A stretch of DNA of 64,000 nucleotides from Calditrichia bacterium (GTDB taxonomy: Bacteria; Calditrichota; Calditrichia; RBG-13-44-9; J075), in assembly GCA_050633245.1 (NCBI GenBank), contig JBOEGD010000016.1:90748-154747 (forward strand). The letters are read 5' to 3'. Each line of letters opens with the position of its first letter. Position 1 is the stretch's first letter. A program made the position numbers and the translations under genes. Under the pieces are notes generated by a model. The model saw only the letters and a program-made list of their open reading frames with translations. It made no database searches and was not told the DNA's origin. Of the stretch, positions 3,357 to 47,774 are shown piece after piece.

Positions 3357-3380
3357 GGGCAGGCCTTTCAATTATGGGAC

Positions 3381-3991: not shown

Positions 3992-4004
3992 TGGCCCTCC
4001 TAAT

Positions 4005-21215: not shown

Positions 21216-21427
21216 GATGGCATTTCCTCATCATCATCCAGGTCTGTGGGCCAGGCGTAGGTGACAATTAAATAGAATAGTGCCGAGACGGCAAAGCAGA
21301 AGCCGATTTGATAGGTGAGTCCGATGGGTAATCCCAGCAAGCGAGAAGAATCCTGCCACCACCACAGATCGATGCGCAAGAAATAAAAAAGTCCGAGAAA
21401 GAGTATCAAAACTGAGCGAATAGACAT
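21212..21427 (-). CDS. Small two-TM SSS accessory protein (DUF3311/DUF997-like)
   Basis: DLWWWQD..LLGLPIGL.Y motif; 4-nt overlap with the SSS gene; GGAG SD. Confidence 0.8.
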   Translation of the reverse strand: MSIRSVLILFLGLFYFLRIDLWWWQDSSRLLGLPIGLTYQIGFCFAVSALFYLIVTYAWPTDLDDDEEMPS

Positions 21428-26685: not shown

Positions 26686-28038
26686 TTATGTGTAACGGGC
26701 ATTTTGATATTGCTCGTCATAAAAAAGCGGCAGAAGTTGATCGACCTGCAACAAGCCTTCGCGCGTTAACGTCACATCCCGATCACTAAAATTCAGCATG
26801 CCGGTTTCTTTCAGCTTATTGTATTGTGGTCCGAATGCCTCGACAATATTTACATCAAATTTGTTAGCAAAGTAATCAACCTCAATGCGTCCCAGCTTAA
26901 GCTGCAAGATCATTTCACGTATCAGCTGATCGCGATTGGTGGTCTGCTTTGCGCGATATACCGGCAATTGGCCCTCATCGAGAGCACCGAGATATTCATT
27001 CCATCGGCTGGAATTTTGATAGTGAATGCCGTCAAAATGTCCAAAAGAAGAAATTCCAGCGGCTAACATATCGCTGCCTTTCCAGAGTGCATCGCGATAG
27101 ACGAACTTGATTTTGCTGCTTTTCTTAACAACCGTATAGGCACTTGAAACGTCATATCCGGCAGCAACAAACTGATCGATGGCATAGCTCTGCCAGGCAC
27201 GCTTGGTATCCCAATCGGCAAAGCTGAGAACTTCAGATTCACCATCACGCAGCTTCTGCGAATAAATCGCATTATGAGGCAATTCCATCTGATAAATTGT
27301 AACGCTGTCGGGATCGTAGTCAATCGCCCGCTGCACCGTTTCTTTCCAGCTCTCCCAGTTGTCGCCAACCATGCCTGCTATTAAATCAATATTCAGCTGC
27401 TCAAAGCCTTCCTGCTTTATCCACTCTCTCACGCGATAGATCTCTTTCGACATATGTGCTCGTCCATTATCGCGCAGAATATCATCATTGAAGTGCTCTA
27501 CCCCAAGGCTAAGACGCGTTACACCGATTTCGCGGATCGCGGCCAATTTACTCTCGGTCAGCGTTCCCGGTTCGCATTCAAATGCGACCTCTTCAACCTG
27601 ATCCCAGGGAAGTGCAGCTTTTGCGTGTTCGACCAGAAAGTGCAGATGTTTTACACTTATGAAAGATGGTGTTCCACCGCCAAAATAGATATAGCGAAGT
27701 GGGCGATTTTGAATCGCCGGCATGTTACCGTAAAGTTCCAGTTCGCGCACCAGCGCATCGAGATAGTTTTGAATCTCACTGCTGTTCTTGCCGGTATACA
27801 CCTTGAAGTAGCAAAATTTGCAGCGCTTGCGGCAAAATGGAATGTGCATATAAAGCCCCAGCGGCTGCTGAGACACGGCAGGCTGCCGTAACTGGTCTAA
27901 AACAGTCTCCACATCTTCATCATTCCAAAATGAGTAAGCCGGATAGTTGGAAACAAAAACGCTACCAACCTGAGTGGAACTTTTTTTATTGGGTGAAGTA
28001 GCGGGATCGGCTTGAAACCGCTTTTCAGCATCGCTCAT
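26686..28038 (-). CDS. HemN-like radical SAM protein (atypical)
   Basis: LYMHIPFCRKRCKFCYF CxxxCxxC, YFGGGTPS, TRLSLGV, NIDLIAG; lacks the HemN GPRYTSYP and HemW HNxxYW signatures. Confidence 0.9.
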   Translation of the reverse strand: MSDAEKRFQADPATSPNKKSSTQVGSVFVSNYPAYSFWNDEDVETVLDQLRQPAVSQQPLGLYMHIPFCRKRCKFCYFKVYTGKNSSEIQNYLDALVRELELYGNMPAIQNRPLRYIYFGGGTPSFISVKHLHFLVEHAKAALPWDQVEEVAFECEPGTLTESKLAAIREIGVTRLSLGVEHFNDDILRDNGRAHMSKEIYRVREWIKQEGFEQLNIDLIAGMVGDNWESWKETVQRAIDYDPDSVTIYQMELPHNAIYSQKLRDGESEVLSFADWDTKRAWQSYAIDQFVAAGYDVSSAYTVVKKSSKIKFVYRDALWKGSDMLAAGISSFGHFDGIHYQNSSRWNEYLGALDEGQLPVYRAKQTTNRDQLIREMILQLKLGRIEVDYFANKFDVNIVEAFGPQYNKLKETGMLNFSDRDVTLTREGLLQVDQLLPLFYDEQYQNARYT

Positions 28039-29383: not shown

Positions 29384-30565
29384 CTAATCAGCAGTATATG
29401 CCAGTTGGTAAATCTCATACAGTTGTTCAGCCTTAACCGGACGTGGATTAAAATTACCTGTCCATTGCTCAGCAGCATCTCCGGAAAGCTGTTTCAATAC
29501 GTCTTCAGACACATCCAGCTCCGATAATAATGTTGGCAATCCGGCGCTTCGAATTAGTTCCTGCAGTCGGGCAACCAAGGGCTCCACCGAATTCGTCGCA
29601 TCCGCGGCAATACCAGCTGCGTGCATTAATTCGCGATACAGATCGGCAGTTGCGTTATCACGAGCATTGTAACGCACAACAGAAGGTAACATAACGGCAA
29701 CGGCCTTCCCATGGGTTATTCCAAATCGAGCAGTTAGGGGATTAGCCGTTGCGTGTGCCGCACCAAGCATGGAGTTTTCGATAGCCATGCCAGAGAAGTT
29801 AGCACCTAAGAGCATATTTCCCCAGTGTTCAATGGTTGGCGATTGAAATATTGCTGCAAAGTTGGCTTCCAAAAGTCGCCAGGCCTCTTTGGCATAAAGC
29901 TGTGAGATGGGATTTCTTCGCGTGCAGACATAACTTTCAACAGCATGTGAAACGGCATCTATTGCAGTAACGGCTCGAACTTCCGAGGGAACACTCTCTG
30001 TAAGCATGGGATCCAGAATGACGTGATGAAAACGGGCTTTAATATCGCCACAGGCCATTTTACGATGCGTTTCGGCATGTGAAATTAGAGCATAAGACTG
30101 TGCTTCGCTACCGGTTCCCGCGGTTGTTGGAATCCCTATAGAAGGTAACATCGGCTTATCTGCTTTTCCATGCCCCCAGTAGTCTTCCATCTTGCCATCG
30201 TTAGTCAGCAGGAAATTTATTCCCTTGGCACAGTCCATTGAGCTTCCACCGCCCAAGGCAATAATCAGTTCAATCTTCCCGGCATTTACGGCAAATTCAA
30301 CACCGCGCTCGACATGTTCAGTAGTAGGGTTTTCTTCTACCGCGCTGAATACATCACAGCGAATCCCCTGGTTCTTCAGCGCATTGAGCGCACGGCTAAC
30401 GTGCCCCGCTGCAATAATTCCCGGATCAGTCACGAGTAAAACGTGTGAAACGTTAAAACCCATGGTTATGGTTCCGAGCTGATTCAATGAGTTGGCGCCG
30501 AAGGTTATTTGAGTGGTCGGCTGAAATTCAAATGACTGCATATATCTTTCGCTATCACTATTCAC
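29384..30565 (-). CDS. Iron-containing alcohol dehydrogenase
   Basis: VTDPG, ENPT, LGGGSSMDCAK, PTTAGTGSEAQ, DAVSHAVE, GAAHATANPL, HGKA; alternative ATG at 30541. Confidence 0.94.
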   Translation of the reverse strand: MNSDSERYMQSFEFQPTTQITFGANSLNQLGTITMGFNVSHVLLVTDPGIIAAGHVSRALNALKNQGIRCDVFSAVEENPTTEHVERGVEFAVNAGKIELIIALGGGSSMDCAKGINFLLTNDGKMEDYWGHGKADKPMLPSIGIPTTAGTGSEAQSYALISHAETHRKMACGDIKARFHHVILDPMLTESVPSEVRAVTAIDAVSHAVESYVCTRRNPISQLYAKEAWRLLEANFAAIFQSPTIEHWGNMLLGANFSGMAIENSMLGAAHATANPLTARFGITHGKAVAVMLPSVVRYNARDNATADLYRELMHAAGIAADATNSVEPLVARLQELIRSAGLPTLLSELDVSEDVLKQLSGDAAEQWTGNFNPRPVKAEQLYEIYQLAYTAD

Positions 30566-30834: not shown

Positions 30835-31674
30835 TTAGGGACAGGTTATATCTTCACCTTGTGAATCCCAACAGCGCCAATTGGTATCGCCAAAGCGGTT
30901 TTCATCTGCTACGCGACCAGCAGTAACAGTGGGGTTACGATCCCACTCAATGTCCGTTTGATTGCCAGTCTCAGCATTGTAAATATCGTAAAAGAGTTCA
31001 AAGTCGCCATTAGTCAATCTGCCATATTCGATGTAACTACCTTTACCGGCATTTCCATCCAAAACATTGGTATATTTTACGCTCGCATCTTCAGATTGCA
31101 AATCCCGCTGCCATTCAATGAAGAGAAAAGACGTTTCAACTGCACGGTTTGGATCGTTTAATGTCCAGGTGCCTTCCGTTATCAGTAAATCAGATTGTCC
31201 GTAAAACCAGAGGCGGTCGGTAAATGCGCCATCGCGTGAAACAAACATTTCCCACTGGATCTGATTAGATTCCAGTCTGCCATATAATTTGGCAGAATGT
31301 TGGACACCTAAAACCGGGAAATTATAGCTCCAAAGCCATGAGCCATCTTCCTGACGAACCGGATCGTGATTAAAAGACTCACCGAATGCTGCAACCGGAC
31401 CGACCAGAGTAACAACCAGAATAGTATTCCAGATTCCAACATTTAGCGCAGCCCAGTTCAAGTGGGCACGAGTTTTACCGGCTGGCAGCTCTGCCGGTGC
31501 AGGATTAGCTAGAAAATCAAAGTTCATCAGCATGGTATTTTCCGGAGGCAGCTCAGGTGCAGTCTCCCCATCTCCCGGCCCGGATAGATCTTCCGCACAT
31601 GATGATAGAATTGTAATCGAAAATAGAAGTATTGCAAAAAGTCTCAAAAAAGTATTGGTTCGTAGTGTTTTCAT
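30835..31674 (-). CDS. Hypothetical lipoprotein
   Basis: ILSS-C lipobox, GGAG SD, beta-rich body ending in CWD...C. Confidence 0.8.
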   Translation of the reverse strand: MKTLRTNTFLRLFAILLFSITILSSCAEDLSGPGDGETAPELPPENTMLMNFDFLANPAPAELPAGKTRAHLNWAALNVGIWNTILVVTLVGPVAAFGESFNHDPVRQEDGSWLWSYNFPVLGVQHSAKLYGRLESNQIQWEMFVSRDGAFTDRLWFYGQSDLLITEGTWTLNDPNRAVETSFLFIEWQRDLQSEDASVKYTNVLDGNAGKGSYIEYGRLTNGDFELFYDIYNAETGNQTDIEWDRNPTVTAGRVADENRFGDTNWRCWDSQGEDITCP

Positions 31675-31856
31675 GTTAAGCTCCTTCAGTGAAAGGTTTA
31701 TATATCAGTCACTATACATATTACACAGAACGTGCCAACTTGCTGAAAAACATCTTAATTACAATAGGAACAGAGATTTAAAAATGAAAAGATAGTCAGT
31801 ATGAATCGAAATAAAGAGTGAACAGCAGATACGGTGTGAATATTTAACAACAGATC

Positions 31857-34073
31857 CTAACCACGCCGGCTGATCATAATCAGTGGACAATCTGTATTTT
31901 GCCCAATTGTTAATGCAAAGCTCCCGAATATCTTTTTGCGACGCCCAATCCGCTGGAGGCCGAGGATCATTAAATCGCAATCTTCAGAAAGCCGCACAAA
32001 CTCTTTAATCGCATTCTCACTACGCACAACGGTAATCGTCGACCGCACCGGAACTTCGTCGTTGGCCATCTGCTGCAGTTTTTTGCGCGCACGCTGCTCC
32101 TGCCCCTTTGTCATTGATGGAGGAACCACGCGTAAAAAAGTGATTTCCCGATGGCCCGTCCGGCATAAGCTGCCTAACAGACGAGCGCGAAGTAAATCAT
32201 GCCCTCCCCTGCCTCCAACACCAACAATTATTCGCTTTGCTTGTGAAAGATGCCAGCCACTTCGGGAGCGCAATACCACCACGTCGCAATCGACACCACT
32301 CATAATTTCTTCGAGATGACTACCCGTCGGACCATCTGGCGACAAGCTATGTGCACCTAACAGCAGGCTCTCGCATCCATGCGTAGCCGCAACCCGCGAG
32401 ATTTCCTTCCATGCTTCCGGTGAAATCGTTGTAAGAGCTTCCGGTTTCAGACCCGCCGCGAACGACGCAGTGAGTGCCTCACGCAGCACCTGCTGCGCTT
32501 CAATAAGTCGATGGTGTGGTTCACCGGCACGCCAGCCGCCTTTGTCTACCAAAACAGAGAGTAATAAAACGCGCCCTACACGTGGTGGAGCCAGCGCATT
32601 AGCCACGGTGACCATTGCTTCTGCATTGGCCGGATTGGCAATTGGCACCAAAACCAGCGGACGTTTTCCGCGTAGCTGTGCCAGCTCGGGATCAAGCGCT
32701 TCAAATGCAGCATCGGCGGCAGAAGCCCGTCGGGCAAAAGAAACCAAATAGAGCAATCCACCAGCCGCAAGCCATGCGAAGCCGATGATACCAGCGCGCG
32801 GCACCATAATGCCCTGGAAGATTGCCAGGGCCAGACAAGACAATGCACCAAGCACCGGAAGAACTGGAAACAACGGGATCATAAACTGAGCCGTGTCGGT
32901 GCTGCGAAGTCGGGCAAGAATGCTGGTATAATGCGCGAGGGCAAAGGAGATTAGAAAAATAAGTGACGATACGGCTCCCGCTGCAGCCACGTCTGAAATG
33001 AGCGTAAGCAATACGGCAACCATCAGTGCGCTTAATAAGATCGCCGCAACCGGCGTTTGTCTCACCGGATGCAGTTTGCCCATTGCTGCAGGCAGAGTAT
33101 TATCCTGAGCCATAGCACGGGCAACCCGTGATGCGGCGAACAGGTTCGCCTGCAGAGCAGAGAGCATCGATAAAATTGCTGCCAGAATAACAATCCAATA
33201 TCCGGTTGGGCCAAGATAGTTCTGAGCTGCCACAGCCACCACCGTCTCCGGGTTATCGCGGCTAATTTCCTGAATCGATTCTGCATCTCCCACACCGACA
33301 GTAGCGATTACAAATAAAAAGGGCAGATAAATCAACATGCCGATACCCAGCGAGGTCAGCATGGAACGAGGGATGGTTTTACCCGGGTCTTTCACTTCCC
33401 CACCGATTGCGGCAATCAAATCGAACCCCTGCAGGGCAATAAACGTGTATCCCATTGCCTGAAACAAGCCCGCCGCTCCTTCAGGAAAGAACGGGCTAAG
33501 TCTGGCAACGCCCTTGGCGGTATCACCTGTTAACCAAATCCAAATACCCGCAAGAATAAGTCCAATAAATAGGACAACCTTTCCGATCGTTTCAAATTGT
33601 CCACCGCCACCAGTTGAGCGCAATAATGAGAGCACATAAATACCGGTTGCCAACAGAGCGAGTAAACTTTCGAACCTGGCATGATGCAGCAAAGCCAGCT
33701 GCCAACCGAGCGCATCGCCGATTCCAATAAGTGCAACCTTAAAAAACGAGGCAAAGCCAAGTGCATAAAGCAGTGCAGCGACAATTGAAGCAAACCAGAC
33801 AATCCAGCCAATAAAAAATGCCGCTTGAACGGAAAACACCTTCTTTGAAAAAGCATAGGTGCCGCCAGACTCCGGAAAGCGCGCAGATAGTTCGGAGAAA
33901 CTGAATACCGTAAGCAGGGCAATTACTCCGTTAAGAGCGAACGCCAAAATAGCCCCGGGACCGGTTATTGAGAAGGCAACACCAGCCAGCGCCAAAATTC
34001 CGCCGCCGACAATTGCGCCAACGCCAATCATCGTCGCGCCGGAATAACCGATATGTCTGGTAGATTTTGCCAT
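31857..34073 (-). CDS. APC-family amino acid permease fused to universal-stress-protein domains
   Basis: GVGAIVGGGI, ELSARFPESGG.Y, GEVKDP; C-terminal VLVPIANP, LMILG, CPLIMI USP motifs. Confidence 0.92.
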   Translation of the reverse strand: MAKSTRHIGYSGATMIGVGAIVGGGILALAGVAFSITGPGAILAFALNGVIALLTVFSFSELSARFPESGGTYAFSKKVFSVQAAFFIGWIVWFASIVAALLYALGFASFFKVALIGIGDALGWQLALLHHARFESLLALLATGIYVLSLLRSTGGGGQFETIGKVVLFIGLILAGIWIWLTGDTAKGVARLSPFFPEGAAGLFQAMGYTFIALQGFDLIAAIGGEVKDPGKTIPRSMLTSLGIGMLIYLPFLFVIATVGVGDAESIQEISRDNPETVVAVAAQNYLGPTGYWIVILAAILSMLSALQANLFAASRVARAMAQDNTLPAAMGKLHPVRQTPVAAILLSALMVAVLLTLISDVAAAGAVSSLIFLISFALAHYTSILARLRSTDTAQFMIPLFPVLPVLGALSCLALAIFQGIMVPRAGIIGFAWLAAGGLLYLVSFARRASAADAAFEALDPELAQLRGKRPLVLVPIANPANAEAMVTVANALAPPRVGRVLLLSVLVDKGGWRAGEPHHRLIEAQQVLREALTASFAAGLKPEALTTISPEAWKEISRVAATHGCESLLLGAHSLSPDGPTGSHLEEIMSGVDCDVVVLRSRSGWHLSQAKRIIVGVGGRGGHDLLRARLLGSLCRTGHREITFLRVVPPSMTKGQEQRARKKLQQMANDEVPVRSTITVVRSENAIKEFVRLSEDCDLMILGLQRIGRRKKIFGSFALTIGQNTDCPLIMISRRG

Positions 34074-34180
34074 TTATTGATTAATCTTTCATTGTGTGAG
34101 GCTGCAAAGATAATACGATTTTCAGCTGGTCGCAATCTGAATACACGGCAATACCGTCAATGGCTTGACTAAGCGGTACA

Positions 34181-35395
34181 ATGGGAGTATTATTGTCCAT
34201 GAATGCGAATCACATGTTGAGAGTATTTTCGATTACTTTCGCCGCGCCCTGCCCTTCGGCTCCGCTCAGGGAGCGGGCTATTGCGTTCCCCGAGCCCTTC
34301 GGCTACGCTCAGGATAAACTCAACCGGGGGGAAAGGTTTCATTTTTCTGAGGGTAATCCGGGTCATGCTTTTCAACTCCTGATTCGCATCATAAATCGAC
34401 TTTTATTACTAATAGTATTATCGTCCAGCCTATTTGCACAATCGCTGGAGCCAGAGCTGTTGCCGGATTTACGGTCAGACTTTCTCCAGCAGACTGAGTT
34501 TACCAGTACCACAACTGCGCATATAAATAGCTATCTGCAATATTATTCACTGCCAGATTCGGTAGACTATCGATACCGCAGTATCTCTGCCGATACGTTT
34601 CAGTTAGCCGTGCAGATTTTCTCTCCGCCAGATCCGACCGGTAGCATGCTGATAGTTCATGGCTACAATGCGCATGCCGGACTTCAGCAACAGCTGATTC
34701 GGCATCTTCTGGACATGAAGATGCGGGTTATTCTATACGATCAGCCGGGACACGGGCTGTCTACCGGCAAAACGGCGAGCATAGCAGAGTTTGATGTATA
34801 TGGTGAAGCATTACAAAGCGTTATCAATGCCACCTCCGACTATCTCACCGAGCCGCAGTTGATGATGGGACACAGTATGGGCTGCGCGGTTATCCTGACC
34901 TGGCTACAGGAAAATCCGCAAACCGCATTCGAAGATTATATCTTTCTGGCTCCATTGGTGAAACATCGCTTTTGGCAGCTCGGTAAGCTTGGCACGAAGG
35001 TCATTTCTCCAATGCGTAACAGCATCCCACGCCGGTTTAAAGCATCCTCCAGCGATACTGCCTTTGTGAGTTTTTGGCGTAAGGATCCGCTAATGGGCCG
35101 AAAAGTGCCGCTTGAATGGGTGCAGGCACTTTATCGCTGGTATGAAAGTGTTAAATCAGTGCAGCAGTTTCCGGGTAAACTGCTTGTTGTGCAGGGAGAT
35201 AAAGATCGCGTTGTTGACTGGCGGTTCAACCTGCCCTTTTTAGCAGAGCGCTTCTCCGGCGAGCGCCTCTACCTGCTTGAAGGAGCGATGCACCAGCTGC
35301 AAAATGAAGGATTGCCGCTAAGAAAGCGCGTGCTTCAACAAATCGGATTTTGGGTGCAGGATAAGCAGGAAGAGTTGGTTGAGGTTTTGGAGTAG
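34181..35395 (+). CDS. Alpha/beta hydrolase (lysophospholipase-like); start uncertain
   Basis: VHGY, DQPGHG, GHSMG nucleophile, QGDKDRVVD, GAMH; N-terminus runs through a REP-like element. Confidence 0.85.
   Translation: MGVLLSMNANHMLRVFSITFAAPCPSAPLRERAIAFPEPFGYAQDKLNRGERFHFSEGNPGHAFQLLIRIINRLLLLIVLSSSLFAQSLEPELLPDLRSDFLQQTEFTSTTTAHINSYLQYYSLPDSVDYRYRSISADTFQLAVQIFSPPDPTGSMLIVHGYNAHAGLQQQLIRHLLDMKMRVILYDQPGHGLSTGKTASIAEFDVYGEALQSVINATSDYLTEPQLMMGHSMGCAVILTWLQENPQTAFEDYIFLAPLVKHRFWQLGKLGTKVISPMRNSIPRRFKASSSDTAFVSFWRKDPLMGRKVPLEWVQALYRWYESVKSVQQFPGKLLVVQGDKDRVVDWRFNLPFLAERFSGERLYLLEGAMHQLQNEGLPLRKRVLQQIGFWVQDKQEELVEVLE
34251..34331. repeat. REP-like elements inside the 5' part of the hydrolase ORF
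   Basis: CCCTTCGGCTCCGCTCAGGGAGCG and CCCGAGCCCTTCGGCTACGCTCAGGATAAAC share the core seen at 26.5, 28.1 and 50.1 kb. Confidence 0.75.
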
Positions 35396-35713
35396 GAATA
35401 TGGTTCAGAACCTGCTTGTAAACGTAGTAAAACCGCTACGTTCCACAGAATAAGTGTCAAGGTCAATCTGCTCAAAAGCCATGTTTTAAAGGCGTTCTTG
35501 AGGATTTGCGGTTTAGTGTTTTGCAAGGTTTATTCGCATATTGTTGGTACTCGCGAAATTGATAGAATTTTCTTTAATAATTTGAAGTGAAAATTGCTAA
35601 CAACTTCTAAAAAAAGATCTATCCCGCCTTTTTATTGTTAGAAGACTGATATATATTGCAAGTATTATTAAAAATCGATGGAAACGGATCTCACCCTAAA
35701 ATAGTATTCTTTG

Positions 35714-36712
35714 TTATCTGTTCATAATAAACATACGAATAAGCCCTTCTGTCTCTTTCGAATTATTTGCATAAGGCTCTAATGCTTTTCCGATTATTGT
35801 TCCCAATGCGTTCTGAGGGACATTACACTTCATCGCTACTCCTCTTTGAGTTGAGGAGACGAGTAAATCACCTACTTCGATACTACCGCCTTCAGCACAC
35901 ACACGTACATAGACTTGCCCACCAATTGCAATTGGTAAATCGCTACTTCCGTCTTTTCTTGTTCCAATTACCAAACCTGGTGAAAAGTCACCCGCGCCGC
36001 TAATAACACCAACGACCTTTTGATCAAACGCTTCAACTGAAGGTAAAATTCCATTTGCCTCCTCAGACGCAGACATAACAGTACCTGGAATTACACCATT
36101 ACGAGCAGATAATTCGAAAACTTCAGCAAAATCATGAACTTTCTTACCATGAACGTTAACATAACCGTGATATTCATATCTATCCCATGTATTGCTGCGT
36201 AAAAATTGATTTTTATCAATTTTAGTTCGATAGTTAGGATTTTTTACTCTCTGCACACCAATTTCAACTTTACGAGTTCCTGAAGGTTGATTAAATATCA
36301 GAATCCCGGTAGAATCCCTTGAATGACCTATATACACTGTTGCAACGTTTATTTTATTGAAATTAATTCCATTTTCAGATAAGGGAAATTTAAGGGGGCT
36401 GTAATATTTTTTATAGAAATCGGAATAAAATTTAATATGGCCGTTATTTTTTATACTAAATTTGTCTGGAATATTGCCTGGCTCTCCACTAAGACCTCGA
36501 TATCCTCTGGGCCCTCTTTCTCCAGGAGATCCTTGAGATCCTCTTTCTCCTTTCTGTTTTTGCAAATCTTGTAATATTTTTTTTAATTGAATTATCTCAT
36601 TTTCATGTTTCTTAACCAGATCTGATATACTTTGTGTTTGTGAGAAAAGCGGGGCGATAAAGGTAATAGACAAAAAGATGGTTACAATTTTAATATTAGA
36701 ATATCGAGTCAT
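35714..36712 (-). CDS. Secreted coiled-coil + short collagen-repeat protein with a C-terminal DFAE-type (peptidase G2/IMC-like) domain
   Basis: Signal peptide; GER GSQ GSP GER GPR GYR GLS GEP repeats; DFAEVF...VVGVISG...GQVYVRV...GDLLVSS...IIGKALE. Confidence 0.75.
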   Translation of the reverse strand: MTRYSNIKIVTIFLSITFIAPLFSQTQSISDLVKKHENEIIQLKKILQDLQKQKGERGSQGSPGERGPRGYRGLSGEPGNIPDKFSIKNNGHIKFYSDFYKKYYSPLKFPLSENGINFNKINVATVYIGHSRDSTGILIFNQPSGTRKVEIGVQRVKNPNYRTKIDKNQFLRSNTWDRYEYHGYVNVHGKKVHDFAEVFELSARNGVIPGTVMSASEEANGILPSVEAFDQKVVGVISGAGDFSPGLVIGTRKDGSSDLPIAIGGQVYVRVCAEGGSIEVGDLLVSSTQRGVAMKCNVPQNALGTIIGKALEPYANNSKETEGLIRMFIMNR

Positions 36713-36766
36713 TTTTTACCTCGTGAAAATTTTTATTTGCAAAAATTTATGTAAAATGTTCAGATT

Positions 36767-37777
36767 CTACTTGCAAGGTCCAACATCTGACCAATTTAAA
36801 GGTCTATTCGTAGTAACGCTTTGTGTGAGGCATGAGTTATTCCCCAAGTCTTTCTGAAAATCGTAGGGTCGATCGGCTGTAGAGACATCTTCTGGTAGGG
36901 ACACAATTTCAATCATTTCTTCTGTAATCTTATCTCCCTGCTCCCCATCTGATTTTAAATAAATTCCAGGCTCGCGTTCAGGTAAAAATATGTCCAAATG
37001 ACTGGACGAGAAAAAAATGCCAGTTATTACCGATAGTAAGATGCAAGCTCTCCATACCAACGGTATTAAACGCTTATGTTTATTATGATTCTGCTGTATT
37101 TTTAATTTTTGATTTTGTGTTTGAATTACTACATTTGACTGATTTTTAGTCCCTGTTTCTTTTTGACTTCTCTTATCGTTAGCCCGGAGCTTTGTTCGAT
37201 CTAGCTTCCCTGCTTCTCGCTGAAACTTGCCTTGCTCCTCTTGTAACAAAGCTCTTCTTTTTTCAGATAATATATGTAGATTTTTCTGCTTCTCTTTTTC
37301 GAATTCTTTTAACAAATCGCGATATTCTTGCAAGGATACACCTAATTGGCCATCATTGGGAGACAATTCCAATTGGCTTCTGAAAGTCCTAAGCACCAGT
37401 TCAAAACCTTCTTTCTCAAACAAATCACAGTAATGAATATCAGAAAAGCGCTCTGGAATTTCACACTCATTTAACCTTACTGGGATAATAAAAAGCTTTC
37501 CTTCAGGCATTTCTTCTAATGTATCTAATGCTAGTTTATACTCTCGCTGTACATAGCCCCGTTTTGCTACTGATTGTTTTGAAAAAAAGATCATTACAAA
37601 CCGCGCTGTCTTTAGAGCCTTTGAAGTTTCCATTCTCCAATTCTGCCCCAATAATAAGTCCTTTTTATCCATCCAAGGACTAAATCCAGCCTTAATTAAT
37701 TGTTGATAAACAGCTTTTACTGCCAAAATATCTTCTCGTGCGTAGCATAAGAAGATTCTGGCTTCATTGACTCTCAT
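36767..37777 (-). CDS. TIR-domain protein with coiled coil and C-terminal TM
   Basis: RIFLCYARED, GFSPWMDK, GQNW, SVAKRGYVQRE, FIIPVRL; hydrophobic LVWRACILLSVITGIFF; ATG 37777 chosen (ORF track starts at 37813). Confidence 0.85.
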   Translation of the reverse strand: MRVNEARIFLCYAREDILAVKAVYQQLIKAGFSPWMDKKDLLLGQNWRMETSKALKTARFVMIFFSKQSVAKRGYVQREYKLALDTLEEMPEGKLFIIPVRLNECEIPERFSDIHYCDLFEKEGFELVLRTFRSQLELSPNDGQLGVSLQEYRDLLKEFEKEKQKNLHILSEKRRALLQEEQGKFQREAGKLDRTKLRANDKRSQKETGTKNQSNVVIQTQNQKLKIQQNHNKHKRLIPLVWRACILLSVITGIFFSSSHLDIFLPEREPGIYLKSDGEQGDKITEEMIEIVSLPEDVSTADRPYDFQKDLGNNSCLTQSVTTNRPLNWSDVGPCK

Positions 37778-38412
37778 TTTGTTGCTTCCTGCTTCAGTGT
37801 AGTTAGTACACAAACATCTATTTCGCTGATTAACATTCAGAGAGAAAAGTGATTACTTGACATGTTAAACAGGTAATTTTATCGACTAAAAAATGTGTTA
37901 TCTAGGATCTTTTCTAGATTACAATATTGTGAAGCGACTAATCAAACTTCATGAAATATTTTAAAGTGCAACAACCTTAGCTTAATAAAGGTTAGTTGTT
38001 GGTTTTAGCGATGCTAAGGTTTGAGGAGTTTTTATAAAATATACATTCTGGGCAAGATTCAAAAGGGGAATAATCTTTCTAAAATATATCAGCTGAAATT
38101 GAATCAGCTGAGACTGAGAAAGCTCCTGAAAAAACTCTCGGGGTTTCTTGAATCCTACCCAGTTTCTAATCCACCGTATTCATAAGGTGCAGGCTCTTTT
38201 GCTCCATACGGTGATGATTCTTTGAGTTATGTGAGAGGCGAAGAACCTACACAAAACGGTCATTTCTCTTTAACTGAAAAGACAACTGCAACAACATTTA
38301 GTGCTTTCTGACAGCAGCCGCGGTATGAATTAAATCGAACGGATGAACATTGAATCCACGTTGGCAAAATTTTGGTTTTAGCGGATGTTTACAAACTTGT
38401 GTCCATTAAGAT

Positions 38413-39165
38413 TTACATCGTCTCAAACAACTCCCTCAAATGGTGCAGCGCAACCTCCTGATCAATAAAGTACGGACTGGTGGCAATGGTTATGAATTCG
38501 GCGTGCTTTATACAGTAACGAATGTAATCGTATTTCTGCTGCTGTGGAATATAGCTCATCTCATCGGCGAAGATATCCAAATCGAGATCGAAGACAAATG
38601 GAGGTTCCGGCAATTGCTGGAAAGCACCGCTGCTATCAATAATATCAACCTTATTGAATAGCCCCAGCTTGATGGCCGGTCGAATAAAGTTTCCGACATT
38701 GAGATGAAAGTTTGCGTAGTCTAAGGCCTCTTTCAAATCGAGGTCTGACCAGTTTGCCGGGGCGGGGGACGATCGCTCCGGTTCACGCATATCGCTATGC
38801 TGATCGACGTGGATTAAACGCTGTCCCGGTGCGAGAACGCCAGCCTTTAAACCAACCAGCCAAAACATAAATGCGTGATTATGATTGTCAAATAAAAAGA
38901 TATGTTTATCGCGCCAGTGGCTATAGATGAATTTAGCCAAGCCCGACAACGCACGTTCAACACCATCCTCAATCTCGCAGAAAACAATCTGCTCGCCAAG
39001 CTCGGCAGATTCAAGCGACGCTTCTATCAGAGGTGGGACAATGATCGATTTGTGTTCTCGCTCTTCAAAAGAAAAGGCATTGTTGCCGGTTGCGGTCTTA
39101 ATAGAAAAACCGCTGTAGAGCTTCATCAGCTCTGCCAGCGGCTTTTTCATACTATTTGCTACCAT
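38413..39165 (-). CDS. UPF0489-family (arginase/deacetylase-fold) protein
   Basis: FDNHNHA, IHVDQHSDM, LNVGNFI, FDLDLD, TIATSPYF; ATG 39165 lies 4 nt after the upstream stop. Confidence 0.8.
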   Translation of the reverse strand: MVANSMKKPLAELMKLYSGFSIKTATGNNAFSFEEREHKSIIVPPLIEASLESAELGEQIVFCEIEDGVERALSGLAKFIYSHWRDKHIFLFDNHNHAFMFWLVGLKAGVLAPGQRLIHVDQHSDMREPERSSPAPANWSDLDLKEALDYANFHLNVGNFIRPAIKLGLFNKVDIIDSSGAFQQLPEPPFVFDLDLDIFADEMSYIPQQQKYDYIRYCIKHAEFITIATSPYFIDQEVALHHLRELFETM

Positions 39166-39169
39166 ATCG

Positions 39170-40600
39170 TTAGGCCAATGTCGCCTGAACATGCAGCGCA
39201 CGCTGGCGGTAAAGATGTTCGAACAAGTTACCTTCATGCGGCTGATCCCAGGCAATTTTCATGGTAGGAACCGGTCCAATGTTCAAACGCTCTACATTCG
39301 GCGATGCAAATAATTCATTGACATAGTTCTGATCCTTTGTAATTGCCGAAACAACCAGAGTTGGCCCCATCTCATTCAGAATGCGATCCTGCGGCACTTC
39401 CACCACCGTTACAAACGGAAACAAGTATTCGCTGGATGCCAGTGGATGCTGCGGGTCTTCACAGTAGACAACCGTCGGTAGCAGAAATACGCAGTCATCA
39501 AGCTCTACCAGTCGGCTACCCTCACGGTATTTTGCCGTCAGGTCTTCAGCACCTTCGGTCTGCAGCTGACTATCTATTGCATCATTCAGCATATAGGCCA
39601 GCTTCTTATTGGCAAAAGCTGCGATTTGGGCATTCGGATCATCCATCGTCGTTGCAGTAACCTTGGCAAGGCGCTTCGCCAGTTCTTCAGCAATTTCACG
39701 TCCACGACGCGGCACCCAAAGTCCTGAAGCATTGATGCAGGAACGTCCGCCATTTGCAACAACGGAATGTTCTACCACATCGAGATGCTGATTAAAATCG
39801 TCTACCTGGTCTTCACCAAAGAGGACCTTACTCCAGCCCGGTCCATGAATCTGAACGCGTTTGTCGTTCTTCCATGGTGCAACCGTGTTCTTATCACCAA
39901 AGAACATGGAACGACCGGTGCGCAGTAAAATTTCACGTGCGCCATCATAGCTGGTGGGATAGTAGCCAAAAACTTCCGGCGGACAACCGGCAGCCATAAA
40001 AGACTGTGCAATGCGATAAGGCGTCCACGGCTCCTGACTACCCGGCTTTAGCACAACCGGCACCTTCAGGGCGATGGCTTGAATCCAGAGCGAGTGAACC
40101 CCGGGCGAATTGCTCGGCAAAATAGCTCCCAGAGCATTGGTTTCGCAGAGAAAATTTAGCGGCCTGCCATCTTGCTCAACCCAGCCTTTATCGAGAATGG
40201 ACAGATCGAGACCGCGGGTAAGTCCACCAAGCACTTCTTCCATGCCTTCCATAACCAGCGTTATTTTTGCCATATTGGTTCGGCAAAGTGCCTCCGGCAT
40301 TCCGGTAGTGGCAGACAAATTGGTAATGTACTCTTCCGGTGTTTGAGTGCCGTCTCCCATCGGGAGTTCGCTTTCATTGAAGTATTTCGCGGCTCGCTTA
40401 CACATGTCCAGCAACTCACGAATCGGAATAGCATCCAGAACCTTTTTATTATGGGCGGCATCGCGCATATCTTTGTTAATCAATCCGGGATTGGCCTGAC
40501 TCATTTCTGCAACCGGCTCTCCGGTGCGGAAATGGGGAATCGTAACCGTAGTGAGGCTTTTATACGGTTTCCCGGCTCGTAATATGGGTATATGAATCAT
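39170..40600 (-). CDS. Atypical ALDH-fold protein, EhpG/acyl-reductase-like
   Basis: PSNSPGV (Asn), LKPGSQEP, NGGRSCINAS (catalytic Cys), EYLFPF; HGPGWSK replaces ELGGK. Confidence 0.82.
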   Translation of the reverse strand: MIHIPILRAGKPYKSLTTVTIPHFRTGEPVAEMSQANPGLINKDMRDAAHNKKVLDAIPIRELLDMCKRAAKYFNESELPMGDGTQTPEEYITNLSATTGMPEALCRTNMAKITLVMEGMEEVLGGLTRGLDLSILDKGWVEQDGRPLNFLCETNALGAILPSNSPGVHSLWIQAIALKVPVVLKPGSQEPWTPYRIAQSFMAAGCPPEVFGYYPTSYDGAREILLRTGRSMFFGDKNTVAPWKNDKRVQIHGPGWSKVLFGEDQVDDFNQHLDVVEHSVVANGGRSCINASGLWVPRRGREIAEELAKRLAKVTATTMDDPNAQIAAFANKKLAYMLNDAIDSQLQTEGAEDLTAKYREGSRLVELDDCVFLLPTVVYCEDPQHPLASSEYLFPFVTVVEVPQDRILNEMGPTLVVSAITKDQNYVNELFASPNVERLNIGPVPTMKIAWDQPHEGNLFEHLYRQRALHVQATLA

Positions 40601-40629
40601 ACGGATATCTCCGTTTGGTTTTATTGGGT

Positions 40630-41718
40630 TTAATAAACACCTACAACGACTGACTGCTGAAAGCGCGAGAACAAACGCAGGTTCGATACGCCATCCCAGG
40701 GATAGGCATCAATCGGTTCAGCGCGTTCACCTTCATCGCGTTCTAGGAATCGTGGCATAAAGAATTCTTTAGTCAGCGTGGTTAAGATAACACGTCCGGT
40801 TTCACCATAATCAACAAGCTCATCAGGGTTGTCCGGATTGACCAGTTCAAACACAGCACGTGGATGCGGACCATAATAGGTAATGGCGTAATCGTCTTTC
40901 TGATCGAATGGCTTATTACAGGCCAGTCCCATTAGCGTGTTGCCATAGGTTGGTTGAAAATCGATTCCGGGAATCAACTCTTCACGTGCGAAGCGATGAA
41001 ATTGCGCATTCATCTCGGTTCCACCGCAAAAAATACCGGTTACACCATGCTTGACGAGCGAGATTTTCTCACAGAGAGACTCAAGTAGCTTCGGCGTGGT
41101 AAACACGCATTTTATATTGTCATGGGCACGAAGAATTTTCAGCGCCTGATCGATAACGTGTTGCTTATACAGCTCGAGCTCCTGCATCTTGCCGGCTTTA
41201 ATGAGCTTGTTTACCCAGCGCGGATCGAGATCGACAAAAAAGCAGATACCGCCGCGGTGCTGAGCCAGATGCTCTACAGCCAGGCGCAAACGACGTGGCC
41301 CACTCGGACCAAGCATCAACCAGTCACCGCCTTTGGGGAAGGTCTCATCAGAAAGCGTTTCGCTGAACATTTCATAATCCGTCCGAAAATCGTTAATATT
41401 TATACGCGATTTCGGTACGCCGGTTGAGCCACCGGTTTCAAATATATTAATCGGACTATTTGCATACGGTTTCGGCACCCATCGTCTCACCGGGCCACCA
41501 CGCAGCCATTCGTCCTGAAAATGACCAAGGATTTTAAGATCGTTGTAACCACCGATCTCTTTGCGCGGATCAAAGTCCAGGTTCTCCGCGTAGTTCAGCC
41601 AGAAGGGACAACCGGTTTCAGGACTAAAGTGCCAGTCTACAATTTCGCGAACGTGAGTGTCCAGCTTATCCTGTGCTGCCGCAATCTTTTGAGACAGCGA
41701 TTTATCTAGAATATCCAT
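40630..41718 (-). CDS. Stand-alone truncated adenylate-forming enzyme, EhpF-like (phenylacetate-CoA ligase/LuxE superfamily)
   Basis: WHFSPETGCPFW, FETGGSTGVPK P-loop, DLDPRWV, GGT, TYGNT, VDYGETGRV.LT.L, ERD; no C-terminal lid domain; ATG 41718 after GAGGA. Confidence 0.8.
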   Translation of the reverse strand: MDILDKSLSQKIAAAQDKLDTHVREIVDWHFSPETGCPFWLNYAENLDFDPRKEIGGYNDLKILGHFQDEWLRGGPVRRWVPKPYANSPINIFETGGSTGVPKSRININDFRTDYEMFSETLSDETFPKGGDWLMLGPSGPRRLRLAVEHLAQHRGGICFFVDLDPRWVNKLIKAGKMQELELYKQHVIDQALKILRAHDNIKCVFTTPKLLESLCEKISLVKHGVTGIFCGGTEMNAQFHRFAREELIPGIDFQPTYGNTLMGLACNKPFDQKDDYAITYYGPHPRAVFELVNPDNPDELVDYGETGRVILTTLTKEFFMPRFLERDEGERAEPIDAYPWDGVSNLRLFSRFQQSVVVGVY

Positions 41719-41754
41719 AAGTTCCTCATTATAAAGCATCAGGTTTGGGGTTCG

Positions 41755-44014: not shown

Positions 44015-45475
44015 TTACATATTTGCGTCTATTGCAAACAATGTCGTGCGGCTGGCAATATACAGAACACCATTATAAACGGTTGGCGTAGAGTATACTG
44101 CGCTACCCATGTTTACTTCGTGAATCAGCTCTTTGGTTTTAGAAGCGCGAAGTACTGCAACATCGCCGTCTTCATCACCAATATAAACCTTACCATCCGT
44201 AACAAATGGTGATCCCCAAATGGCAGCAAATGTATCATAAATCCAGTGCTCTTTACCAGTGTTTACATCCAGGCAATACAGAAAACCGCTCAGATCGGAA
44301 ATGAACATCAGGTCGTCGATAATTGCGGCGGTTGCCATGGTGCGATTGAAGTCATCACCACTGCGCTGCCAAATATTACCGGTTTCGGTAATGTCTCCGG
44401 TTTGGGAAGCATCGATGCAATACAAGTTACCAGGTGCTTCGCCGTGCTCCGGATCTTGTCCAACGCCAAGATAGACTTTACCATCCAGAAATACCGGAGT
44501 TGAGATCAGATTATTGCGCGTACCGGAACCACCAAGAATCCACTTGGAATCCTTCGGGTTACAGTCAAATTGCCAGATCAGGTCACCGGTTTTCGGATCG
44601 AAGCTATATGCAACTCCATCCCCGCCGGGAAAAACCACCTGCTCACGGCCACCAGCTATACCATAAGCCGGATTGGCCCAAGTACCGTGAAGGATATCTT
44701 CACCGGGAAGGTTGTTTTCCCAAACAACTTCACCGCTATTCTTGTTAATGGCAAGAAAGCTGGGTGCTTCAGGCGAAGGAATAATGATATGGCTTTCATC
44801 GACACCATTCCCGGTCGTTAAATAAAGCATGTCTCCGACAAGCAATGGGCAACCAACAGCCAGGTTATGCGGGAATACATCCAGCTCATCGATGGTATCC
44901 AACTTCCAGATAATATCTTCATCGATTTTGCTGTTTTCAACTTCATCCTTGTACGGTCCGCGATTTTCACCGTCCAGGAAACCATCCAGATCAGCAGCAA
45001 TCACTTCAGCGCGATTAGACACATAATAAATAATGTCGCCTTCAATAGCAGGTGTCGAGCAAATGCCCTGCAGCGGCCAGTCATTTACCATACCAGACGG
45101 CAGCTTGGCGTGGGCTGCCTGCCAGAGAAATTCACCCTTGTCTTCAGTAAAAACCATCAGGTTTCCGCGATCGCCACCCAGCTTGGGATTGCGAACAGCT
45201 TCATTGTTGGTGGCAATAACTACTTTGCCGTCAACAACCTGCGGGTTGGTATAGGTTTGTGATCCCAGCTTGGCAGTCCACTTAATGTGCTTACCGGTTT
45301 CCGGATCCCAGCTATGCGATATTCCGGTTGCTTCCTTTACCATATTGCGCGTAGCATCAAATCCATACATTGTCAGCACCGGAGCATCGGCCGATTTATC
45401 AGATTTCGTCTCCCTAGCTCCCGGTGTACTTACCAGAAGCAAGAGCAGTATAACTGCAACTATTTTTAACATCAT
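44015..45475 (-). CDS. Exported PQQ-like beta-propeller protein with His/acidic motifs
   Basis: Signal peptide; LGSQTY, DWPLQGICSTP, FPHN, TGNGVDESH, ILHGTW, GQDPEHGE, WGSP, GDEDGD. Confidence 0.88.
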   Translation of the reverse strand: MMLKIVAVILLLLLVSTPGARETKSDKSADAPVLTMYGFDATRNMVKEATGISHSWDPETGKHIKWTAKLGSQTYTNPQVVDGKVVIATNNEAVRNPKLGGDRGNLMVFTEDKGEFLWQAAHAKLPSGMVNDWPLQGICSTPAIEGDIIYYVSNRAEVIAADLDGFLDGENRGPYKDEVENSKIDEDIIWKLDTIDELDVFPHNLAVGCPLLVGDMLYLTTGNGVDESHIIIPSPEAPSFLAINKNSGEVVWENNLPGEDILHGTWANPAYGIAGGREQVVFPGGDGVAYSFDPKTGDLIWQFDCNPKDSKWILGGSGTRNNLISTPVFLDGKVYLGVGQDPEHGEAPGNLYCIDASQTGDITETGNIWQRSGDDFNRTMATAAIIDDLMFISDLSGFLYCLDVNTGKEHWIYDTFAAIWGSPFVTDGKVYIGDEDGDVAVLRASKTKELIHEVNMGSAVYSTPTVYNGVLYIASRTTLFAIDANM

Positions 45476-45506: not shown

Positions 45507-47774
45507 TTACTTTGCTGTTACTTTCACATTGTCGTAATAGTGCTCGGTATAAGATACCCCGATAATTCCCGGGCTACCCTGCATTACCGGATACGGATCT
45601 TCAGTCGTAATTGACCAATCTGTCGGCTCAGCTTCGTCTCGTGGCCAAACCTTACCGCGGATAATTGCTTTACCGCCTTCATAGGAGACATCGAGCTTCA
45701 TCGTATACCAGCGATTCTCTTCCCACTTAAACGGCACTACTTCCTGAATACGGTATTCCGAGACCCAGGAGCGCAGTTCCAGGCGATTGCGCTTACCCAT
45801 CAAGTCCATTTCGTAGCCATGAGAGATTAGTCCAATATCCGAACGCTTACGCTTGTTCCGCTGATCCATAAAATCGGTCTGAATCACGTAGCCCTTCATG
45901 TCCGACGGTCCAAAATAAGTAGAATGACGCTGAATACCTCTCTTTGCGAGCGGCTTTGAAAGTACCTTATTACCATCTTCCAGCGTTTTTACAATGAACT
46001 TACCACCGGGTGATCGCGAACTGCTTGTGCCAATCCACGGGCTCGGATTCCCACCATCCTCAATATCTTCAAAGTCTTCCGTCCAAGGCAAATTGGGGAA
46101 TACCCGAACGCGAGCGGTTCCACTGACTCCGTCTACCGTCGCCATAACTTTACCGGCATGCATTTTTTTCATGTTCGTTGGAAACGTCATGCTTCCATCG
46201 GAAGCAATTGAACCCTCAACACCCTGCAGTTTCCATTCAGCAGCGGACTCACGCAGAAAGCGGCCAGCCTGATCGAACAAACGTGCACGGAAGGTGACCT
46301 TATCACCGGCACGAGCATCGAGTTCGGCAGGAACAACCTGTACCCAGGCTACCGCAGCGTCTTTGGTAGACTGCGGTTCAGCCAACACACGCTCCGGCAT
46401 TTTGCCAGTGACGAAAGGACGCGCTTTATCGCCAAGGCAATAAACGCCTACCTCGGTAGCGAAATATACACGGCCATAAGCAATCGCTACAGATCCATAT
46501 ATCTCTGCCGCGCGCTCTTCAGTTTTCATATGAATTTCTTCTTCGTCCAAAACCTCAACGCCGGTAGCGGAAGGCTTGAGGATATACATGCGACCATTTG
46601 TTTCAGTCACATAAATTTTGCCGTCAGCCCAAACCGGAGACGGTCGGCCGATTGTTCCAAGGCTATGCTCCCACATTTTCTCGCCGGTTTTGGCATTTAG
46701 GGCATACATCATTGCGGCATTGTCAATTGCGTAGATAACGCCATCTTTAATCATAGGTGATGAGTTACCGATTTCTGCATCATATCGCCATACTTCGTTT
46801 GTCTTTGTAATGTCGCCACTACCGCTGGCGTTAATCGCTACTAAACGTCCCATTTGCGGGGTATCAACATTTTCTTCACTATGCCCGGCATACACCATAT
46901 TCCCATCGATAACAACAGAAGAGTTCATTCCACGCTTGCTCAGCTTGAATTCCCAAACCTTTTCACCGGTACGGGCTTTCATAGCGTAAACCGTTCCATC
47001 AGCGTTTCCGCCAATCAGCAGACGTTCGCCATCAATAATTGCAACGCTTGGCATGGTATAAATGTTTGGTGCTTTAAAAACACCGCTCGGTGTTGCGGTC
47101 CAAACGGTTTCACCGGTGCGCTTATCGAAAGCAAAATGACGGTGTTTCATTGGCTTCTGCTCACCCCAACCAGCGGAGACATAACCGGTGATGAGCAAAT
47201 CTTCGTCGATTAGCGGACTGGTGCTACGGCCGCCATAACCGGTGCGGGTTCCAAATTCTTCCGTAAGAGAACGCTTCCAAACAATCTTGCCATCTTTGTC
47301 GAAGCAGTGTATCATCGCGCCACTACCAACCGCATAAACATAACCGGTTTCAGCGTCCCCACCCATGCTAGCCCAACCCAATCGATTAAACGGAACGGAT
47401 GTTAAGCGCATATTGTAGCGGTATTCCCAGAGCTGGGCGCCGGTTCCGGCATCAAAACAGGCAACTATCTCCTGCTTGGAAATCCCATCTCCGGTTCTAC
47501 CGATCACATAAACACGACCGTCTTGAACTATCGGCGTTGAACGACCGATAAAGTCGGCCTTCCAAAGCAGGTTTTCACCTTCCTGAGACCAACTGTCTAT
47601 CAGGCCTTTCTCTGTAGAGACACCATTAAGCGTTGGTCCGCGCCAGTTGCGCCATTCAGTCGTTTCTACCATCTTACTGTCTTTAACCATTTTACTGTCT
47701 TTAACGTTTCCGCTGCTGCACGCGGCAAGCAGGGCAAAGATAAAGGCAGAGGCTATCAGCAAATGAAATCGCAT
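45507..47774 (-). CDS. PQQ-like beta-propeller lipoprotein with C-terminal Ig-like and concanavalin/LamG-like domains
   Basis: LLAA-C lipobox; WRNWRGP; GxxxW repeats; VQVVPAE..ARAGD Ig-like segment; WTEDFE...WYTMKL...RGKVWP..E.EP.W. Confidence 0.88.
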   Translation of the reverse strand: MRFHLLIASAFIFALLAACSSGNVKDSKMVKDSKMVETTEWRNWRGPTLNGVSTEKGLIDSWSQEGENLLWKADFIGRSTPIVQDGRVYVIGRTGDGISKQEIVACFDAGTGAQLWEYRYNMRLTSVPFNRLGWASMGGDAETGYVYAVGSGAMIHCFDKDGKIVWKRSLTEEFGTRTGYGGRSTSPLIDEDLLITGYVSAGWGEQKPMKHRHFAFDKRTGETVWTATPSGVFKAPNIYTMPSVAIIDGERLLIGGNADGTVYAMKARTGEKVWEFKLSKRGMNSSVVIDGNMVYAGHSEENVDTPQMGRLVAINASGSGDITKTNEVWRYDAEIGNSSPMIKDGVIYAIDNAAMMYALNAKTGEKMWEHSLGTIGRPSPVWADGKIYVTETNGRMYILKPSATGVEVLDEEEIHMKTEERAAEIYGSVAIAYGRVYFATEVGVYCLGDKARPFVTGKMPERVLAEPQSTKDAAVAWVQVVPAELDARAGDKVTFRARLFDQAGRFLRESAAEWKLQGVEGSIASDGSMTFPTNMKKMHAGKVMATVDGVSGTARVRVFPNLPWTEDFEDIEDGGNPSPWIGTSSSRSPGGKFIVKTLEDGNKVLSKPLAKRGIQRHSTYFGPSDMKGYVIQTDFMDQRNKRKRSDIGLISHGYEMDLMGKRNRLELRSWVSEYRIQEVVPFKWEENRWYTMKLDVSYEGGKAIIRGKVWPRDEAEPTDWSITTEDPYPVMQGSPGIIGVSYTEHYYDNVKVTAK

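Follow-up and report, generated by a model that had tools for sequence, protein, structure and literature searches.

A 64,000-nucleotide stretch of DNA from a Calditrichia bacterium (contig JBOEGD010000016.1; hereafter, the window) carries two neighboring genes, one for an adenylating enzyme and one for a protein with the fold of an aldehyde dehydrogenase (ALDH), which resemble ehpF and ehpG of Pantoea agglomerans. A first-pass annotation of the sequence had proposed that the pair reduces a carboxylic acid to the aldehyde. The homology of the two proteins, their conserved residues, and their genomic surroundings were now followed across related genomes. The larger finding, which the annotation had overlooked, is that the pair lies within a conserved gene cluster spanning 10603-47774.

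The EhpF/EhpG-like pair

The open reading frame (ORF) of the adenylating gene extends over 40630-41739 on the minus strand. The ATG at 41718, which is preceded by GAGGA, is the likely start and yields a protein of 362 aa; this form is present in the database at 100% identity. The ALDH gene follows downstream on the same strand after a gap of 29 nt. The motifs FETGGSTGVPK, TYGNT, and ERD (adenylating protein) and HGPGWSK (ALDH) were all found in the translations, so that ORFs, motifs, and spacing are as the first-pass annotation had described them. EhpF (PDB 3hgu/3l2k) was the only significant solved relative of the adenylating protein and aligned with it end to end (E 8e-46; residues 24-369 against 21-369). 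Both proteins terminate in GVY and neither has a C-terminal lid domain, again as had been claimed; a G[VL]Y end was present in 239 of 240 close homologues (337-391 residues long). A database search returned E<=1e-10 for all 8000 scored candidates, and the best 120 were 77-100% identical, which means that the observation is not due to chance; those of the best 120 that carry names are mostly from KSB1 or unclassified bacteria.

The ALDH-fold partner is a homologue of EhpG: the profile of the clade ALDHs matched Pantoea EhpG with a probability of 99.89 (hhalign; E 1.3e-32), and the EhpF/EhpG identity proposed for the pair thus holds for both proteins. In a HMMER alignment to the hydrolytic ALDH 4o6r, His252 of the HGPG motif occupies the position of the ELGG glutamate, and neither Glu nor Asp was found in this general-base column in any of 55 clade ALDHs (register taken from the 4o6r alignment). 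Asn164, Cys288, and the NAD(P)-ribose Glu391 are kept in the window protein, in agreement with the noted loss of the hydrolytic Glu and retention of Asn and Cys. The GPG sequence at the ELGGK site, which had been put forward as an oddity, is an ordinary signature of the EhpG family: the Pantoea protein reads QGPGRSK, and GPG is common to it and three other distant partners, the remaining two having variants. The predicted model of the ALDH (predicted local distance difference test [pLDDT] score of 93.8) matched classical ALDH folds with Z of about 35, at only 16-18% identity. GAPN (1uxn; Z 35.1, root mean square deviation [rmsd] 3.2, 442 residues aligned) and phosphonoacetaldehyde dehydrogenase (Z 35.0, rmsd 3.0, 438 aligned) tied for the top match.

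The logic of LuxE/LuxC is formation of an acyl-AMP, transfer to a Cys, and then reduction by NAD(P)H, and LuxE uses a Cys near its C-terminus. The adenylating protein of the window differs from LuxE in this respect, as inspection of its last 90 residues found no Cys. The likeness to LuxC drawn in the first-pass annotation stands as an analogy only, since the 50 best structural matches listed by each method were classical ALDHs, and no LuxC or PduP title was among them, an absence from those lists that does not amount to exclusion.

Co-folding of the adenylating protein with the ALDH scored 0.72 and one control 0.53, a difference under the required margin of 0.20, and the result was not counted either way. 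The second ALDH encoded in the window (54556-55992) is unrelated (E 0.22). A search for natural fusions of the pair retrieved 16 longer proteins, 15 of them in single-member clusters; because they resemble read-throughs of neighboring cluster genes, no fusion is claimed. Two distant members of the EhpF family, P0202 and P0217, have a class III aminotransferase or a zinc alcohol dehydrogenase as their fusion partner, which would be consistent with an aldehyde product being handed on.

Pairs of this kind also occur elsewhere. All 19 plasmid records with an ALDH match (E<=1e-15) fall among the 29 with an EhpF match, which indicates that the two genes travel as a module. Of the annotated pairs inspected, two belong to phenazine clusters, two more to other clusters of chorismate origin, and one to a haloarchaeon; chorismate-pathway genes surround three of four annotated plasmid pairs and one further Streptomyces pair, but not the haloarchaeal one (L083:6508-10566, Halalkalicoccus plasmid), which adjoins a sodium symporter, an SDR, an amine oxidase, and an IclR regulator, and has no phenazine genes. 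One further record carries no annotation, and for one EhpF homologue the neighbor is a polyketide synthase and no ALDH was detected. Plasmid homologues 31-35% identical to the window protein are labeled "arylcarboxylate reductase," a name that presumably derives from GriC.

The closest known systems are EhpF/EhpG of P. agglomerans (griseoluteic acid; 31% and 26% identity over the full length) and, grouped with them, the EsmB1-like genes of Streptomyces phenazine clusters. The window pair shares with EhpF/EhpG the gene order, the lidless adenylation domain ending in GVY, and the GPG motif and catalytic Cys of the ALDH; the genes around the two pairs, in contrast, differ strongly. EhpF-O are described as converting a phenazine dicarboxylate to a 6-hydroxymethyl product (PMC3175449), and the lomofungin cluster as containing consecutive genes for an alcohol dehydrogenase, an EsmB1-like protein, and an aldehyde dehydrogenase (PMC4549113). 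The same two-step logic outside phenazine synthesis is found, by description, in GriC/GriD of Streptomyces griseus (grixazone), where, as far as the cited account goes, the AMP-binding protein forms the acyl-AMP of 3-amino-4-hydroxybenzoate and its partner reduces it to the aryl aldehyde (PMC10179220).

Homologues of Pantoea PhzA/B, D, E, F, and G were found neither in the 64-kb window (tblastn, E 1e-3), which confirms that phenazine genes are absent from the vicinity, nor in 1.33 Mb around 80 orthologues of the adenylating gene (see below), despite their detection in the phenazine control loci L082 and L085. Since pairs without phz genes are common and GriC/GriD is a published example, a two-component reductase outside a phenazine pathway is an established type of system and not the oddity it had been taken for. 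The first-pass interpretation was therefore sound on the EhpF/EhpG identity, the loss of Glu, the local absence of phz genes, and a linked alcohol dehydrogenase gene (see below), and the features that it called striking were already known.

Clade and pocket motif of the adenylating enzyme

Scanning one-per-species genomes yielded at least 596 confirmed stretches, the best 80 of which were analyzed as loci. Record titles, available for 75 of these, assigned 43 to Acidobacteriota, 16 to Poribacteria, six to Latescibacterota, five to Planctomycetota, three to Gemmatimonadota, and two to others. In a quick tree of 68 rows, with the clade thinned to every third locus, the clade formed a single short-branched group (Shimodaira–Hasegawa-like approximate likelihood ratio test [SH-aLRT] 99) far from Pantoea EhpF. 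The median identity of its members to the window protein was 72% across phyla, far higher conservation than is seen with EhpF/EhpG; because this is unusually high for a tailoring enzyme, one fixed substrate and a near-housekeeping role are suggested. Two loci titled Patescibacteria and Acidimicrobiia (L028 and L040) carry the cluster as well; the tree groups both with Acidobacteriota, and they are possibly mis-binned or transferred.

Among the invariant, clade-specific residues are R105, R142, R143, R145, and R287. Three of these belong to a motif that reads GPRRLRL in the clade (R142, R143, R145) and GPHIVG in EhpF. RRLR was present in all 62 clade rows and in none of the 32 outside rows; GPH is found in most of the latter, and four carry RRL without the last Arg. 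From the motif positions of ANL enzymes, R142, R143, and R145 are presumed to line the acyl pocket. By sequence, the clade is thus separate within a known enzyme type and has a distinct putative pocket motif.

The conserved gene cluster

The window holds the whole cluster (Table 1), which runs from 47774 to 10603 on the minus strand and is split by insertions. Its genes were searched for in the 80 loci; because flanks were limited to at most 10 kb, the counts for distal genes are lower bounds. At least one cluster gene besides the ALDH was found in 72 of the loci, from five main phyla, and none in eight (four contigs under 4.2 kb and four full-length loci). Of the 54 ALDH orthologues, 35 are directly downstream of the adenylating gene, and 13 of the 26 loci without one have less than 2 kb of downstream sequence. 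Two layouts recur. The first, which is that of the window, is propeller-propeller-EhpF-ALDH-iron-containing alcohol dehydrogenase (Fe-ADH)-propeller-radical S-adenosylmethionine (SAM) enzyme-propeller-TonB receptor-symporter-GT4; the second is EhpF-ALDH-GT4-ATP-binding cassette (ABC) ATPase-FtsX-propeller. Of the 23 full-length loci that lack the 486-aa propeller, 17 have the GT4, 13 the ABC ATPase, and 10 the FtsX gene, which shows that the GT4/export block remains linked to the pair in rearranged clusters. The Fe-ADH orthologue is usually found immediately behind the ALDH gene, and the link between Fe-ADH and the pair that had been suspected from the window is thereby substantiated. Extra partners were a PaaK-like ligase (7/80), a CmlS-like flavoenzyme (6/80, after one unrelated member was dropped), and a thioesterase (3/80), which are typical aryl-acid enzymes; no CmlS-like flavoenzyme was among the window ORFs scanned. 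A conserved precursor peptide was not found in the cluster loci.

Table 1. Features of the window around the EhpF/EhpG-like pair, in cluster order. Fractions of 80 refer to the related loci analyzed; PQQ, pyrroloquinoline quinone.
Feature	Position	Strand	Evidence and occurrence
PQQ-like beta-propeller lipoprotein with extra C-terminal domains, 755 aa; first cluster gene	45507..47774	-	Pfam PQQ_2; lipobox pattern; orthologue 43/80
Secreted 8-bladed PQQ-like propeller, 486 aa; conserved His/Asp/Glu/Arg/Trp face	44015..45475	-	Orthologue 45/80, median 61% identity
Ankyrin + DUF3471 + PQQ-like propeller, 717 aa	41755..43908	-	Pfam; close relative 1/80 at the threshold used
EhpF-like lidless adenylating enzyme, 362 aa	40630..41718	-	PDB 3hgu E 8e-46; 31% to Pantoea EhpF
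EhpG-like ALDH-fold reductase (predicted), 476 aa	39170..40600	-	N164, C288; H252 replacing hydrolytic Glu; orthologue 54/80
Insertion (UPF0489, TIR, collagen-like, hydrolase, amino-acid permease, lipoprotein)	30835..39255		Homologues in 0/80 loci
Fe-ADH	29384..30565	-	Pfam Fe-ADH; orthologue 27/80; candidate for the aldehyde-to-alcohol step
Secreted PQQ-like propeller, 376 aa	28253..29383	-	Pfam; orthologue 23/80
HemN-like (class C) radical SAM enzyme	26686..28038	-	Orthologue 21/80; candidate for C-methylation of an sp2 carbon
Secreted PQQ-like propeller, 451 aa	25105..26460	-	Pfam; orthologue 9/80
TonB-dependent outer-membrane receptor	22781..24964	-	TIGR01783 275 bits, above cut-off; orthologue 12/80
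DUF3311 small membrane protein overlapping symporter start	21212..21427	-	Pfam; also in L015, L047, L048
Sodium:solute symporter (inner-membrane importer)	19755..21215	-	Pfam SSF; orthologue 3/80, mostly past the 10-kb flank
GT4 glycosyltransferase, N-terminal CxxC (YCGSC)	18457..19758	-	Pfam; orthologue 26/80
LolD/MacB-type ABC ATPase	17750..18436	-	TIGR02211 264 bits; orthologue 17/80
Large FtsX/MacB-type ABC permease, about 1125 aa; start codon uncertain	10603..13980	-	Pfam FtsX + MacB_PCD; orthologue 14/80

The D..H metal motif is present in all 27 Fe-ADH sequences; the best NCBIfam match of this protein was ErcA, an ADH-like regulatory protein (261 bits, below the cut-off of 550) with a link to quinoprotein ethanol oxidation. 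The radical SAM protein matched HemN (1olt, E 1e-33) and NocN (9p2u, E 9e-26), stayed below the equivalog cut-offs for HemN (192 vs 325 bits) and HemW (177 vs 205 bits), and retains CxxxCxxC in 21 of 21 sequences. CxxCxRD occurs in 23 of 26 GT4 sequences, and the N-terminal CxxC of the enzyme is possibly a metal or redox site. Plasmid orthologues of the 486-aa propeller, the radical SAM enzyme, and the GT4 were not found, the best listed matches being at most about 31% identical.

The predicted model of the 486-aa propeller (pLDDT 89.6) has a BamB/YxaL-like fold. When its faces were assigned by hand from the strand order of the model, loop conservation was 91/171 on one face versus 24/79 on the other. 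W133 and C139, six residues apart, are invariant, and the opposite face carries an acidic loop (D168-E178) that is conserved and may bind calcium. The idea of a protein-derived quinone (CTQ), which had arisen from W133/C139 and a QhpG/LodB-like flavoenzyme, was set aside because the best match of the flavoenzyme is the halogenase CmlS and its gene is present in only 6/80 loci. A conserved gene of ∼231 aa, matching a virginiamycin-B-lyase-like propeller, is located between the EhpF-like and ALDH genes in eight loci (L002, L004, L006, L009, L010, L013, L021, and L039), and in L079 (Blastocatellia) two EhpF-like copies (969-2078 and 3355-4662) lie on either side of a GT4 gene.

The window departs from the common layout in two places. 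The 717-aa protein is a paralogue inserted in the operon and not a fixed cluster member, and the block at 30835..39255 is an insertion that splits the cluster and no part of the system. GC content over 35500-38400 is 0.358, as opposed to values of 0.486 and 0.469 for the cluster blocks on either side. This region appears to have been acquired horizontally; it encodes a membrane protein with a TIR domain (36767-37813) and a secreted protein with collagen repeats (35714-36712). The UPF0489 protein directly after the ALDH (38413-39255, minus strand, start uncertain), found in 0/80 related loci, matched the model of the peptide arginase FlmR/OhkR weakly (51.5 bits, cut-off 350). Outside the cluster, a 1479-aa protein (4313-8752, plus strand) ends in a sorting domain for type IX secretion and, for the greater part of the sequence, has no other Pfam match. 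Promoter and terminator scans were close to the shuffle background (29 vs 23.0 and 21 vs 15.2, respectively), riboswitch matches from Rfam were lacking in the window and none relevant was seen in 7 of the 80 loci, and a search of the ESM Atlas returned only generic names.

No published description of the clade was found in the literature searched, the coverage of which excluded most subscription journals. The nearest candidates are the Halo_AMP orphan clusters of sponge symbionts, reported from Acidobacteriota, Latescibacterota, and Poribacteria (bioRxiv 10.64898/2026.08.03.742642). As far as described there, these contain halogenase, PaaK/BagE-like ligase, radical SAM enzyme, glycosyltransferase, thioesterase, and TonB genes, and frequently PQQ-like domains, and some of them may be the cluster of the window; however, a cluster with a P450 is at the center of the preprint, its main text never uses the word "aldehyde," and no such halogenase was among the window ORFs scanned. 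Mycofactocin-type clusters offer a further analogy, combining a radical SAM enzyme and a glycosyltransferase with neighboring paralogous putative client proteins. In contrast to these, no conserved precursor peptide was found for the window cluster, its radical SAM enzyme is of a different class, and the clients are putative.

Proposed function of the pair and alternatives

We consider it probable (∼0.6) that the two proteins together act as a two-component carboxylic acid reductase like EhpF/EhpG and GriC/GriD, that they form the core of a conserved small-molecule pathway, and that their substrate is likely an aryl acid. The parts of this reading are not equally firm. That pair and cluster serve one pathway is highly probable, and the homology and conserved residues make a reductase function of the pair nearly as credible; for an aryl substrate that is glycosylated and exported, the chances are about even. 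From the homology, the conserved residues, the clade, and the synteny, the following chemistry, direction, and order of steps can be proposed. The lidless enzyme would use ATP to convert the carboxylate to an acyl-AMP, from which the acyl group would pass to Cys288 of the ALDH-fold partner. As this partner lacks the Glu base and presumably cannot hydrolyze the thioester, reduction by NAD(P)H would free the aldehyde. The Fe-ADH may then convert the aldehyde to a hydroxymethyl alcohol, the class C radical SAM enzyme may C-methylate the pathway product, and the GT4 may glycosylate the new alcohol. The ABC/FtsX system would carry the product into the periplasm or envelope; there, the propellers, being secreted, may act on or with it. 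The TonB receptor and the symporter would import a precursor. The most likely substrate is a (hetero)aromatic acid with further anionic groups: the family context and the PaaK-like and halogenase-like partners favor an aryl acid by analogy, and the putative pocket arginines favor the additional charges.

Several observations count against this reading. No neighboring gene names the substrate of the pair, and no aromatic-precursor synthase is conserved in the cluster. An aromatic substrate is an extrapolation, because the putative pocket motif differs from that of EhpF. The ALDH is absent within 10 kb in 10 of 48 full-length loci, four of which are devoid of any cluster gene, and Fe-ADH and radical SAM enzyme are present in only two of the 23 full-length loci with the second layout. 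The presumed link to GriC/GriD runs by way of EhpF/EhpG homology, and the synteny covers the best 80 of at least 596 matches.

The arginine-rich pocket would also suit a small non-aromatic anionic acid (a sulfonate, phosphonate, polycarboxylate, or sugar acid), the alcohol from which would be glycosylated into an envelope glycoconjugate. GT4 and LolD-like ABC genes fit such envelope work, the Fe-ADH matches the models of sulfoacetaldehyde reductase (177 bits) and of a phosphonate-pathway Fe-ADH (150 bits), and phosphonoacetaldehyde dehydrogenase is among the top fold matches of the ALDH. These matches, however, either fall short of the cut-off or share their rank with dozens of generic ALDHs, the readable family contexts are mostly aromatic, and the PaaK-like and halogenase-like partners indicate an aryl acid, which leaves this explanation unlikely.

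Slightly less likely still is that PQQ, or a similar polyanionic redox heterocycle, is taken up, one carboxylate reduced to CH2OH, and the molecule methylated, glycosylated, and exported as a cofactor of the propellers. PQQ is a planar tricyclic tricarboxylate and thus similar in shape to the EhpF substrate, and the pocket is rich in Arg. Importer and exporter share one cluster, and a propeller is encoded within 10 kb in 68/80 loci (a non-orthologous one in 26/80), a raw count, uncorrected for the background rate of propellers in these genomes, that amounts to no significance test. The five window propellers have hydrophobic N-termini without a twin-arginine translocation pattern, and the conserved face modeled for the 486-aa protein resembles an active site. 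Yet this model resembles quinoproteins less than it does BamB, YxaL, and tetrathionate hydrolase, the propellers reached only 22-70 bits against the PQQ-dehydrogenase model TIGR03075 (cut-off 480), and their blade-mouth residues differ among the five. The TonB receptor, moreover, matches siderophore receptors (275 bits) better than the PqqU model (77 bits). If true, this explanation would mean a redox cofactor not known before and would provide a shared chemistry for the unexplained PQQ-like propellers of Acidobacteriota, Planctomycetota, Poribacteria, Latescibacterota, Gemmatimonadota, and KSB1.

The pair might, in principle, operate in the catabolic direction, converting an imported alcohol or glycoside via aldehyde and acyl-enzyme to an acyl-AMP or acyl-CoA that feeds degradation. 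Uptake loci typically contain a TonB receptor and a sodium symporter, the haloarchaeal pair adjoins symporter, amine oxidase, and IclR regulator genes, and a PaaK-like CoA ligase and a thioesterase accompany the pair in some loci. Such a role appears improbable, as GT4, class C radical SAM enzyme, and exporter belong to biosynthesis, the homologues act reductively as far as they have been described, and an enzyme without Glu, paired with one without lid domain, would have no obvious way of oxidative acyl release. Ordinary phenazine tailoring with a phz operon elsewhere in the genome, to which EhpF as the only significant solved relative and a genome view of only 64 kb would lend themselves, is very improbable given the lack of phz homologues in the window and around the 80 orthologues with positive controls, the distance of the clade from Pantoea EhpF in the quick tree, and a pocket motif unlike the GPH type.

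A reductase, most likely of an aryl acid, within a biosynthetic pathway remains the preferred interpretation. The clade is large (at least 596 stretches in one-per-species genomes) and defines an orphan pathway in mostly uncultured lineages. Naming its substrate would assign functions to a new class C radical SAM subfamily, a CxxC GT4 family, and several PQQ-like propellers, and a carrier-free reductase for polyanionic acids may be a useful biocatalyst.

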